From: Lama glama
Taxonomy: Eukaryota
Reading direction: 5' to 3'
DNA: 64,000 nt
Assembly (NCBI GenBank): GCA_028534125.1
Contig: CM052816.1
Coordinates: 50,222,001-50,286,000 of the forward strand
Shown here: piece after piece, positions 8,758-29,492 of the stretch
How positions within the stretch are numbered: position 1 is the first letter of the stretch
How the letters are laid out: each line of letters begins with the position of its first letter
The notes under the pieces: model-generated
Databases searched by the model: none
Told to the model about the DNA's origin: nothing
The model's input: only the letters and a program-made list of their open reading frames with translations
Position numbers and translations under genes: made by a program

Positions 8758-9212
8758 ACACCTGTTGAGTGTGTTCTATACCCTGAGAAACAAGGAAGGC
8801 TGGGACCAAAATGTAGCAGGCAGGAAAGATTCCCCATCCCAACCTAGCTCCCCTTCTTTGGGTCATCTGTCATCACCATGTGCCATCAGAAGCCCTGACC
8901 CAGTTCCATCGGCCATGAGGGTCCCCTTTCCTCTTGCAGTTGAGGGATCCAAATCCCCAGGAACCCAAGTGGAAACAATGGCTACATTTTCCTAAGGGGG
9001 TTGTAAATGTAAATCAGTAGGCTCCACATGATTTTATATCTTTGAGACAATGCTAGTCTGAGATCTAAAAGAATAATTTTATACTGTTCATAAACAGAGA
9101 CTGGCACATCAGGCTGCAAATAAAATAGGAAAGAACACCTGCTGTGGAAATGACAATTGCATCATTAGAGGAGGAAGAAGTGGGGAAGCAGATATCAAGA
9201 GTATAAGCCAGA

Positions 9213-10044
9213 CAATTAACAAAAAAATGCAAATTAAAACTACAATGAGGTATCATCTTACACTGGTCAGAATGATAAATGCCGGAGAGGCTGTGGAGAA
9301 AAGGGAACCCTCCTACGCTGTTGGTGGGAATGTAGTTTGATGCAGCCATTGTGGAAAACAGTATGGAGATTCCTCAAAAAACTGAAAATAGACTTACCGT
9401 ATGATCTAGCAATCCCAATCCTGGGCATATAACCAGAAGAAATTCTAATTCAAAAAGATATATGCACCCCAGTGTTCATAGAAACACTATTTACAATAGC
9501 CAAGACATGGAAGCACCTAAATGTCCATCACCCCCCAATGACTGGATAAAAAGTTGTGGTATGTATACACAATGGAATATTACTCAGCCATAAAGAGAAT
9601 GAAATACTGCCATTTGCAGCAACATGGATGGACTTGGAGAATATCATACTAAGTGAAGTAAACAAGAAAAAGAAAGAAAAATACCATAAGATATCACTCA
9701 TATGTGGAATCTAAAAAAAGACACAAATGAACTTATTTACAAAACAGAAACAGACTCATAGACACAGAAAACAAACTTATGGTTACTGGAGGGAAAGGGA
9801 AGGGTGGAGGGATAAACAGGGAGTTCAGGATTTGCAGATGCTAACTACTATACATAAAATAAATAAATAGCAAGGTCCTACTGCATAGCACAAGGAATTA
9901 TATTCAATACTTTTTAATAGCTTATAATGAAAAAGAATATGAAAAGGAATATATATGTATATGTATAACTGAACCACTGTGCTGTATACCAGAAGTTAAC
10001 ACAACATTGTACACTGACCATACTTCAATTAAAAAAAGAAAAAA
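9213..10044 (+). mobile_element. 5'-truncated camelid/artiodactyl L1 (ORF2 C-terminus, 3' UTR and A-tail)
   Basis: 'atgcaaattaaaactacaatgaggtatcatc' through 'aatgaaaaagaatatgaaaaggaatatatatg...acaacattgtacactgaccatacttcaattaaaaaaa'. Confidence 0.93.
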
Positions 10045-12088
10045 TTGAATCAAATATGCTGAACACTGAAAAAAAATAAAATTCTTCACCCAGCTGGTCC
10101 ATTTTAGCAGGGGCTTTCTTCCCATGGTCCCACGGGCTGACAACACTCCTTTTCAGTCTCCCCTACTCTTCCTCCCTTTCTTTTGTCCTTCCCCTAGCTA
10201 CTGGCAATGCAAAAGGCAAAAATCAAAAACAAAAAGGAGTATAAGCCAGAAACTGGATTATAATTGGGAGTTGTTTTCTAAGATGACCCAGAGATGCCTA
10301 ATGAAGACAGAAAGGTATGGATGGCAAACAGAAGAACCTGAGAGAGGACACTGTTAACTCAGAAACAGATTAGGAGATGACGTCTGGAAAACAGTGGGAG
10401 AGTGAGGAGCAAAGAACATAGGTGAGTAAAAAAATTAGGTTGCTTGAAACCAATTTATTTGGCAGATTCTACTCACTGAGGTTAAAAAATAAAAACCTAG
10501 AAGTTACTGGTTTCTTTTTCTAGTCACTACCCAAACTCCTGTATCAAATGTCCCCTTCCCATTGGGAATCAACTGCTTGAATCTTGGGCAGATTCCATAA
10601 CTACCTGTACACTTTTCATTAATATATGCCTGTTTTTACATAGTTCAAAATGCTAATCTCATATATGAAGGTTTTCCTTCTACCAAAGCTTCCATTTCCG
10701 TGGCTCAAGGGACATGGACTGGGGAAGGGAGGATGTCTTTTTTTTTTTTTTTTTCACCCTCTTCCAGCTCCTCCCTGATGCAGGGGTGGGACAGGGCTGG
10801 GCAGGCTGCTCTGGGACCCTGTTCTTGCTCTTCCGGGCTTCAGCGCCTCTGTTATGAAGTGGAAGAAGCAGGGATGAAGGAAAGGGACAAGAACCTCTTA
10901 CTGACTGGTTGCTGTTATAAACCTCTTTGGGATCAGTAAGGCTTCCCTGGATGACAGTGACTGACAGCTGACACCCCTGGTGTGGCAGGTGTCCCAACAC
11001 TGGCCACTGAGAGGACACATGTACACTTCCCAAGAGTCTTTACAGGACACCCCCTGTGCAGTTTCCTGCCCTAGGAGAGGCAACTGTGCGTCTTTCACCT
11101 TCCTTGACTCCATCTCAATTGATATGCACCCTGTCCCCTGCTGCTGTGGTTCCCCTAGTCTGACAGGCCACCCTTGGGACACCAGCAAGGCAACTTAATG
11201 CGGCTATTTTCTACTCTATCACTTAGCCCATCAAAATACTCAAAGCCTGATTCTTGCCAGACCACATAGGAACAAGGCTACCCATGCCCTCTGTCTTTCT
11301 AGTCACTTCTCTCCAAATACCCTTGCTCCTGTGCAGGTAGGTACAAGGATGATCAACAAATTGACTTTCTAGGTGGCTACGCTGAGCTCCACTTCTCACA
11401 GACATCGTCAGCTTCTGTGAGTTATTCTCTTTTAGCCTCTGTTTTACTTCTCCCTTGAGGAGAACAGAGAAAACAGGCAGCTCTCTCCTCAATACTCAAA
11501 AAGTAGTGAAATATAGTGTAGGTGGAAGGCAATACGAAAGAGACTGGTAAGGGAAAAACCAGGTTGTCACGTTGTCTGCAAGTGCAGCAATATGTATCTC
11601 ACTGGTGAAAAGAGAAAGGAATTATAAAAGCCTTTCCTCCAGTCTCCTCTGCCATGGCCCCCTGGCTTTCTCTCTGTGCCCTTGGGTATCTGTATGTGTG
11701 CATGAGTTTCATATCTGAGACCTTTATGTCTTCCTTGAATAAAAAGCTTCCAGGCGTTCCAGTGATTACACAATCCCCTACCAAATTCCAGAATTTCTTC
11801 TGATTCACAACATTGTGGCAACTTCATGAAGGTAGGAGAGATCTTGCTATGGTTCAGCAGTAAGGGAAGAGGAACATTGCCAAAGCCCCTGAAAGTTCTG
11901 AATTGGAAGGGCAGGTGTTTGATGTGGGGAAGCAATGGGAAGTGAGCAGTAACCTGAGAGTAGACTCAGGCAAGATATATAGGTTCCCAACATGTCAGGT
12001 AGTTCCTGCTCTGGTTTCAGATGGAGGAATTTAATAAGCTTTCAAGTCTTAAAACTCAAGTGACACACAGGATACAAGAAAGAGGCAC

Positions 12089-12229
12089 GGAGGGAGGGTA
12101 TAGCTCAAGTGGTAGGGTGCACGCTTAGCATGCACAAGGTCCTGGAGGTCCTCATTTAAAATCCCCAGTACCTCCATTAAAAATAAATAAGTAAACCCAA
12201 TTACATACCCCCACCCCCTACAAAAAACA
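12089..12229 (+). mobile_element. tRNA-derived camelid SINE (vic-1-like) with TSD
   Basis: A-box head 'ggagggagggtatagctcaagtggtag', body 'gcatgcacaaggtcctgg...ccccagtacctcc', tail 'aaataaataagtaaacccaattac'. TSD acaagaaagaggca (12074-12087) versus acaagaaagtggca (12230-12243). Confidence 0.9.
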
Positions 12230-12243
12230 ACAAGAAAGTGGCA

Positions 12244-15901: not shown

Positions 15902-16621
15902 ACTGTCCCATTTCTCCAATGAGGACAGGAAAGCTCAAAGAGGTCAGGCCATACCTTCAGTAAACACTAGATCCAAAGCTCTGTAGGGATTATAGAATTT
16001 ACAGAGGATAATATGCCAGTTTCATTACAAAATCAAATAGAGTAACACATCAACCTTCTTAGGCAAAAGATAAAACATACGTTAAGTACTAGAATTCAAT
16101 ATTTACGTACTTAGAAATGGAGAGCATTCTGCTGAATGTTGTTCAGTGTATTCCGAAGAAGAGGCTGTCTCCTTAAATTCCATAGCTAAAGTGACAGGCT
16201 GTGCACAGGGGCAGTTAACGATGCCTGGATGTGCAGGTCTATCATTTGCATGCATTAAGATGGAAATGGGGCTTCCGTATTTTACTTACATGTGCCCGTG
16301 AAGTGATTGCACTTCCCAAGATCCCTTTGTACTCATGATTAGTTGATTTGTGAACCAAATGAGTGGTTTGAGGATGGAAATAGGAACACAGTGACTCCAT
16401 TTGGGAGGTCCAATTTTGACATAAATGACTAGAGGCTTTTTTTTTTATGAAAGAAGGTAGATACTGGATTCAAATGAAGTTTCTTTAGAAGCTTTGATAC
16501 TTGGGGATTCATTCATTTGAAATGTCCAGTCTGATTTTTGGTACTTAGAATTGCACTTTAATTGGGAGATGTAGTTAAGTGATGATTGACATAATTAATT
16601 TGTAATAAGAAAACCAGTACA

Positions 16622-16946
16622 GGGCTGGGTCAAGATGGCTGAGTAGTAGGACGCCTACCTCACCCTCTCCCACGAATACAGCAAAATCTATACCTACTTG
16701 TGGAACAAATCACACAGAATACCTACGGAACTTTGGCAGGATATCTCTTACATCGGAAATACAAGGAAACCCTCACAAAATCAATAAACAATAAGTTTAT
16801 ACAGCACAGGCAACTATATTCAGTATCTTGTGTAATCTATAATGAAAAAGAATATGAAAAGGAATACACATGTATGACTGAAACACTATACTGTACACCA
16901 GAAATTGATATAATATTGTAACCTGACTATACTTTAGTTAAAAAAA
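16622..16946 (+). mobile_element. Mini-L1: L1 5' UTR start joined directly to the L1 3' terminus, TSD-flanked
   Basis: Starts 'gggctgggtcaagatggctgagtagtaggacgc' (L1 5' end with YY1-like motif), switches near 16784 to 'ataaacaataagtttatacagcacagg...aatgaaaaagaatatgaaaagg', then an A-tail. TSD aagaaaaccagtaca / aagaaaacaagtata. Confidence 0.85.
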
Positions 16947-17924
16947 AAGAAAACAAGTATAAAATATCATTTTTATCAGTAGGATATATCATATCAACTC
17001 TGCAGTGGTAAGAAAAATATTGTCAAAAATTTTATATTTAAACGGATTCTAACAACACTCAGCAATTATCTGCCAGTTGCTCTAAAACACATGTGCCTAA
17101 TAGTAGCAATCGCAAATTGAATTTTGCCTCCACAGACCTGAGAGATACTTTTCTAAAAAAGACCCTAAAATTTGCACTTTAATTCACAAATGTTCCCCTT
17201 CCTTGAAAAGTCACATTTTTTTCCTCTTGTGCAAGTGTGTTCCATTGGAGATGAAATAGTTTTAAAAGCAAGCATTCTTTATTGATTCAGAAGTTTTCCT
17301 ACCCTAACTAGTGCTGCCTTACTGTAAACAAAATACTACCATATCTACTATACCACAAGTTATAATTAGAGGAGTGCTTTCAAATGCTCTCATATTGCTG
17401 GAAAATGAGCTTTTTGTTTGCAAGGCTGAGATGGTCTCCGGTCTCCCTGAGAGCAAGAAGGGAAGCGAGAGGACTTGTGACCTGAGGTGAAAGTCCGGGC
17501 GGTGCTGGGTTCACGTGGCTGCTGGTGGCCGGCACGGGCCAGTGTCATTAGCCATCTTGAAATAATTATTTTGGAACAACTGTAACCTAAAATGTTGGAT
17601 TAAGTAACATTCAAAAAGTTTGCAGCCAGCAGTAGTTTTTACGTTGAATGGGGCAACTACCATTGGGTTTTAGAAAGGATGTTCTTGGTTAAAGTAAATG
17701 CACAAGGCTGGCATTGATTTCTAACTTCTATCCTGGTGACAAATCTAATCCTTACACTATCTTCCTGTCATGGAAACCAAAATACTTTGTTTCCAGAGGA
17801 GTTTCTGTTTAAAAGATACAAAAGATGCTACCGTCTTAGGTGAGCTCTAAATTTCTTTCACTCCAAATATGATTATGATAGTAATAAAAATAATAATACA
17901 ATAATAAAAATAATAGTCATAAGG

Positions 17925-22270: not shown

Positions 22271-22477
22271 TAAACACCAATATTAATACTTAATATAGAA
22301 ACAAAATGGGTATCTATGGCCACAGAAATAACTTGTATCTAAAATAAGAGTCAATTCACAGAGCATGAACTAAAGCCAAGTGGAAGAAAATACACTATTA
22401 GCATACTTAGGTATTTCAGGTTGAAATAATCCAAAGTGATTAGACTGTGTGTTGAGTGCCTCCTCCCTCTTCTTTCT

Positions 22478-22667
22478 TCTTTTTAATTGAAGTGTAGTCA
22501 ATTTACAATGTTGTGTTAATTTTTGGTGTACAGCATAGTGATTCAGTTATACACATGCACACACACACGTATATGTTATATATATATACATATACATATA
22601 TATATTCCTTTTCATACTCTTTTTCATTATAGGCTATTACAAGGTAATGAATATAGTTTCCTGTGCT
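22478..22667 (-). mobile_element. Short camelid-type L1 3' end
   Basis: 'ttttaattgaagtgtagtcaatttacaatgttgtg...ttccttttcatactcttttcattatagg'. Confidence 0.9.
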
Positions 22668-29290: not shown

Positions 29291-29492
29291 TGTTTTGTCT
29301 TGTTTTTATTTATTTATCTTCAGTGAAGTACAGTCGGTTTACAATGTGTTAATTTCTGGTGCAGAGCATGGTGATTCAGTTATATATATATAACTTTATA
29401 TATATAATTCCTTTTCATATTCTTTTCATTCTAGGCTATTACAAGGTATTGAATATAGTTCCCTGTGCTATACAGTAGGACCTTGCTGTTTA
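29291..29492 (-). mobile_element. Short camelid-type L1 3' end with TSD
   Basis: Antisense L1 3' UTR; TSD ggtcagaactgttt (29277-29290) versus ggttagaacagttt (29493-29506). Confidence 0.9.

Follow-up and report, generated by a model that had tools for sequence, protein, structure and literature searches.

The 325-bp insert at 16622–16946 in the window (the whole 64-kb stretch of DNA that was analysed) is a mini-L1, in which a 162-nt head, apparently of L1 5′UTR origin, meets an L1 3′UTR tail at 16783/16784. A spliced origin of this element, taking recurrent dead-end splicing and amplification from master copies together, is very probable. The reading considered probable is that a recurrent 5′UTR-to-3′UTR splice removes both ORFs of L1, and that the resulting RNA is inserted in trans by L1 proteins, giving mostly dead-end retrocopies. 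The following features were annotated:

9841..9862, plus strand: branch-point-like CTAAC, with A at 9844, in a separate 5′-truncated L1 used as a reference only
16607..16621, plus strand: 5′ target-site duplication AAGAAAACCAGTACA, with GTAAT just upstream
16622..16783, plus strand: putative L1 5′UTR head, predicted exon 1 (162 nt), from the start motif and paralogous contigs
16631..16639, plus strand: YY1 core CAAGATGGC, intact, by motif match (PMC5381506)
16781..16786, plus strand: predicted splice junction 16783/16784; exon 1 ends in CCG in the family and in TCA in this copy; source intron GT...AG
16784..16939, plus strand: L1 3′UTR tail, predicted exon 2, from matches to window copies and contigs
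16940..16946, plus strand: remnant A-tail, merging into the A-rich target-site duplication
16947..16961, plus strand: 3′ target-site duplication AAGAAAACAAGTATA

The arrangement described in an earlier note on this DNA, a 162-nt L1 head joined to an L1 tail inside one target-site duplication (TSD), was found as described. The two TSD copies are identical at 13 of 15 positions, and in control draws with random flanks a match of at least 13 of 15 was obtained in 12 of 3000 and 6 of 3000 cases. Since GTAAT precedes the 5′ TSD, the bottom-strand nick corresponds to a degenerate L1 endonuclease site (TCTT/A), the consensus of which is TTTT/A and TTTC/A (PMC5860796). The hallmarks of retrotransposition are represented by the TSD, the short A-tail and a degenerate endonuclease-type site. 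Stop codons are present in all three forward frames of the insert, and no L1 ORF was found. The predicted RNA fold of the insert is no better than that of shuffled sequences (z -0.01), and no structural role is proposed. A pairwise divergence of 12–16% and the decayed TSD mark an old copy. The G-to-A change at the junction makes an AATAAA at 16783–16788, a chance poly(A) signal of this copy. About 600 bp downstream of the mini-L1 lies a GC-rich block (17400–17570) that contains a YY1-type motif in reverse orientation at 17551, possibly a regulatory element.

The opening of the head, GGGCTGGGTCAAGATGGC, agrees with the published mammalian L1 start consensus, which Boissinot and Sookdeo describe as valid for almost all mammalian L1s and in which CAAGATGGC is the YY1 site (PMC5381506). 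Paralogous contigs begin their alignment at 16622 (records 1–3 and 25–27 among the pieces listed). The head thus probably represents the L1 5′ end, an assignment resting on the published start motif and multi-copy behaviour rather than on a direct link to ORF1.

The tail, which carries a private 5-nt deletion near 16798–16802, matches from 16784 onwards three further copies within the window, none of which has the head. One of them, at 9853–10044 (74.7% identity over 194 columns, E 3.75e-30), immediately follows L1 ORF2 sequence recognised by a PDB search (human ORF2p 1126–1179, E 7e-22); since this copy follows the sequence coding for the C-terminus of ORF2p, the tail is the L1 3′ end. In Pfam, the four short ORF2 fragments recognised by the PDB search gave no match, apart from one weak unrelated match below the cut-off. 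Behind the 5′-truncated L1 that contains this copy (about 9213–10044) lie about 190 bp of different sequence and a further decayed A-tract, and a perfect 14-bp TSD (9199–9212 and 10237–10250) encloses both the L1 and the additional sequence; the whole unit, 9199–10250, is likely an L1 3′ transduction. Two solitary L1 tails of about 190–200 bp are located on the minus strand (22470–22667 and 29299–29492), and one of them begins a few bases at most from the acceptor position. The window also contains a tRNA-like SINE at about 12088–12230, for which ARAGORN and Rfam gave no match and which resembles camelid Vic-1.

Fourteen of the 24 public sequencing runs listed, under four organism codes, contain at least half of the words of the locus. 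Contigs were aligned to 16500–16860 at 80% likeness, so that paralogues are included, from the DNA runs X1 and X3 and the RNA or possible-RNA runs X17 and X15. Counts from this alignment refer to the 32 of 4369 pieces, 24 of 339 loose ends and 40 of 73 variant rows that were listed, and paralogues are known as aligned pieces and not as whole sequences. Paralogue letters at 16782 and 16784 lie outside the rows listed, among which a frequent change at these positions would probably have ranked.

The junction was found at other loci. Two of the eight X1 pieces listed, record 7 (16683–16828) and record 8 (16713–16857), bridge it by at least 31 letters on each side, with 18 mismatches each, and records 1 and 6 of the same run extend across it through 15 aligned letters with no gap, record 1 having 7347 letters and being aligned from 16622. 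Records 1 and 6 end 29 letters past the junction, which would fit a 31-letter graph in which the last exon G is common to tails and the preceding C is not. In X3, records 25 and 32 apparently represent the same loci as X1 records 1 and 7, while record 30, with 0 mismatches, is the mini-L1 locus itself. The same junction is therefore crossed at at least two, probably four or more, other loci, and the objection raised in advance, that it might be unique to this locus, fails. Among the variants listed, G at 16783 is present in at least seven X1 and at least four X3 contigs, head-type C at 16781 in at least six and at least three, and tail-type C at 16792 in at least five and at least one, respectively.

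Summed depth over the junction corresponds to about 9–13 single-copy depths, a rough floor because this copy carries private changes close to the junction that reduce detection, and depth is no copy number. In the same contig alignment it is 31–83 at 16770, 250–330 at the peak of the head and more than 20,000 in the tail; the flank depth of 0 in the DNA runs is attributed to the alignment filter. None of the eight X15 pieces listed crosses the junction (depth 0 at 16781–16785), which was not counted as absence. Five single-contig joints among the rows listed skip 65–90 bases between head and tail positions and may be further head–tail junction variants or alignment artefacts.

The sites expected for splicing were found in sequences of both parental parts. 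Unspliced heads past 16780 read CCGGTTAGAAC in X3 (at least three contigs, agreement 0.71) and CTGGTAAA in X17 (at least five contigs, agreement 0.65), with GT at 16784–16785, the exact position where the tail starts in the mini-L1. Record 10 of X15, a single deep contig, represents a donor variant with one more letter before GT (AAAA-ACAG, then GT). In this record (depth 146.6) 251 letters precede 16659, many more than the 37 that the head provides, and its head may be part of an expressed transcript or of a larger repeated unit. Ordinary tails have AAATAG directly before ATAAACAACAAG (at least 26 contigs in X3, at least seven and at least six in X17), and the match of X15 record 14 begins exactly at 16784. 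Agreement of the loose-end consensuses is low (0.62–0.77), and the donor is read from 3–5 contigs per consensus (3 + 5 + 1 listed). Given the dinucleotide content of the window L1, GT and AG together have a chance of 0.26% in one register and 0.5% in two. Both predictions made in advance in the earlier note, GT after the head and AG before ATAAAC, were borne out in the contigs listed.

The head end ...TCA given in that note holds in part: TCA stands at 16781–16783 of this copy, but the family end is CCG, unspliced heads and most crossing paralogues having C at 16781 and G at 16783, and TCA is a mutated form. As judged from these letters, it is best read as CCG after one CpG decay and one transition. 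The crossing locus with one extra G (X1 record 7, X3 record 32) fits the longer donor variant of X15. Two junction lengths matching two donor variants suggest separate splicing events in two L1 variants.

In the window L1 used as a reference, CTAAC is located 18 nt before the acceptor position 9861–9862, with no AG between, and this position lies about 150 nt past the ORF2 end region. The branch-point consensus is yUnAy, and the spacing of CTAAC before the acceptor is that of the usual branch-point place. The acceptor stretch of this L1 is A-rich. Against splicing stand the acceptor without a pyrimidine tract, AA in this reference copy where the family has AG, the two differences of TCA from CCG in the junction of the mini-L1 itself, and the imperfect similarity of the head continuation to the start of the tail.

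The proposed route begins with a full-length L1, which would be transcribed from its internal promoter. The spliceosome would use a donor 162 nt into the 5′UTR and an acceptor lying about 160 nt upstream of the poly(A) site, both sites being observed and the splicing itself inferred, and both ORFs would be excised as one intron. The resulting polyadenylated RNA of about 325 nt would be inserted by ORF2p of another transcript through target-primed reverse transcription, leaving a TSD and an A-tail. Insertion would be in trans because such an RNA codes for nothing, a route that follows from established L1 biology. Splicing would have been repeated, from at least two L1 variants, so that the copies would be a recurring group of retrocopies, most of them dead ends, and not the offspring of one master.

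By depth, heads make up about 1.2–1.4% of tails. About 99% of L1 insertions would lose the head by 5′ truncation, a fate that short RNAs would escape, a 325-nt RNA usually being inserted whole; a rare splice could therefore yield as many head-bearing copies as full-length L1. If there were as many as 300 copies, they would correspond to about 1.5% of insertions with this tail, a share similar in magnitude to the roughly 2% given for SpIREs, for which the denominator differs, and no master copy is needed for the observed pattern. Since spliced RNAs would compete for L1 proteins and supply none, such a splice could restrain L1, and its fossil copies would record which L1 subfamilies spliced, and when.

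An unlikely alternative is that a few spliced copies kept the promoter (the YY1 site and the first 162 nt) and became masters of an ORF-less, SINE-like polymerase II family mobilised by L1. Several loci do have the junction in common, the YY1 core is intact, and the 162-nt head is longer than the 97 nt of human SpIREs (PMC5860796). Mismatch to this copy, however, is 102/741 (13.8%) in crossing contigs versus 97/601 (16.1%) in unspliced heads (Fisher p 0.25), a comparison of five versus five contigs over different spans at the 80% cut-off that is weak against a master copy, and the two junction lengths match two donor variants. Human SpIREs, moreover, lose promoter activity and are called dead ends in the available text of PMC5860796.

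In X17, RNA contigs extend over the locus and the flank upstream of it, and one piece from a paralogue reaches 8 letters across the junction; neither observation was counted as transcription or current splicing. Since record 17 of this run (16531–16678) includes the upstream flank, the coverage gives no sign of a promoter of the element's own. The amplification as a non-autonomous SINE-like family suggested in the earlier note is not borne out: there is no tight clade with this copy, two junction lengths were found, and no promoter-activity sign was seen. A spliced insertion of this sort could readily serve as the origin of a SINE-like element derived from L1, a kind unlisted for the L1 clade in the available text of Kojima 2018 (PMC5786205). 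That splicing did found such an ORF-less polymerase II family, some copies with a working minimal promoter having amplified again, is doubtful; if true, it would be the first bipartite ORF-less element of the L1 clade, and would show that an L1 insertion derived from splicing is not bound to be a dead end.

The imperfect likeness of the sequences after donor and acceptor made it necessary to weigh a homology-driven jump: AAAA precedes both sites, the stretch following the donor, TAGAACAA, is similar to the one following the acceptor, ATAAACAA, and T at 16781 of this copy could be a tail-type letter. Under such an explanation, the reverse transcriptase would have jumped, or repair would have joined the two similar stretches at the head end and the tail start, as a recurrent hotspot without splicing. 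However, a tail-type TAG at 16781–16783 would be expected after a crossover in the AAAA tract, and a retained GT after one in the AACAA tract. The paralogues instead show a C of the head type at 16781 and a C of the tail type at 16792; this copy lacks GT, and its C at 16782 is of the head type. As head letters are kept to 16783 and tail letters follow, the crossover is confined to the single G shared by the GT and AG sites and does not lie in the homology tracts. Template jumping, the alternative proposed in the earlier note, is accordingly disfavoured and quite improbable. Later loss of the middle of one full-length L1 insertion at this locus, with which the single TSD around both parts would agree, is hardly credible and is refuted as a post-insertion deletion by the recurrence of the junction at other loci with 12–16% mismatch and different flanks (records 1, 6, 7 and 8), and the break sits on GT/AG.

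The head pattern gave no matches in viral contigs and two in metagenome contigs: L001 contains a 114-bp related head at the contig end (score 67 versus a shuffle mean of 19 and maximum of 35, n=1000), and the match in L002, inside an 871-kb contig, is probably due to chance. The junction and tail patterns gave no matches in viral and genome contigs, and plasmids and phages gave no match to the mini-L1; these blanks say nothing on mammals because the contig, plasmid and phage collections are microbial. Among titles and starts of abstracts in the openly accessible literature, no 5′UTR-to-3′UTR spliced L1 family was found in camelids, and passages of PMC8605555, PMC6675863, PMC6598621, PMC3531059 and PMC13174262 mention no such family.

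Compared with known systems, a strict SINE, with a tRNA, 7SL or 5S RNA head and a polymerase III promoter, was rejected, the head being of L1 5′UTR type. Rfam gave no matches and ARAGORN no tRNA in the insert, and no B-box-like motif was found there with a crude pattern that also missed the tRNA-like SINE of the window. Processed pseudogenes are spliced, polyadenylated RNAs inserted by L1, and the mini-L1 resembles them in this origin, in insertion in trans and in the TSD and A-tail; it differs in that its parent is L1 itself and that part of the internal promoter is kept. Mobilisation in trans by L1 is described in PMC5860796. HAL1 (half-L1, PMC5786205) is likewise non-autonomous and L1-derived and retains 5′ and 3′ parts, but it encodes ORF1p, whereas the mini-L1 has no L1 ORF; identity with HAL1 was rejected on the stops in all three forward frames.

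ORF-less bipartite non-autonomous LINEs (Bov-A, RIME, NARTc and Vingi derivatives) similarly consist of only the 5′ and 3′ ends of the parent without an ORF (Kojima 2018, PMC5786205). In the available text of that paper, only RTE, Ingi, Vingi and R2, and not L1, are named as sources, with internal deletion as the mode of origin. Those elements are amplifying families, whereas self-amplification of the mini-L1 is a candidate reading.

The closest likeness is to SpIREs, the spliced integrated retrotransposed elements of human L1 described by Larson et al. in 2018, which make up roughly 2% of full-length human L1s, 116 SpIRE97/622 corresponding to about 1.8% of full-length L1PA1-6 (PMC5860796). 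SpIREs arise from a GT/AG-spliced L1 RNA with the donor near the 5′ end, are retrotransposed and have a junction common to many loci; the mini-L1 likewise has the GT/AG junction, a donor near the 5′ end, the insertion hallmarks and the same junction at independent loci. In both SpIRE classes of 2018, the acceptor lies in the 5′UTR or ORF1 and ORF2 is kept (PMC5860796). The mini-L1, in contrast, has its acceptor in the 3′UTR, retains neither ORF, measures 325 bp, would depend for mobilisation entirely on proteins supplied in trans, and comes from a host outside the primates. With this element, spliced L1 insertion, so far described mainly in humans, would reach past the primates and take its most extreme form, in which the entire coding body is removed as one intron. 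Further human L1 splice products, which may include far-downstream acceptors, were reportedly found by Belancio et al. in 2006. The mini-L1 is a variant of the SpIRE-type spliced L1 insertion that stands outside the two classes of 2018, as set apart by their descriptions in the available text of PMC5860796.
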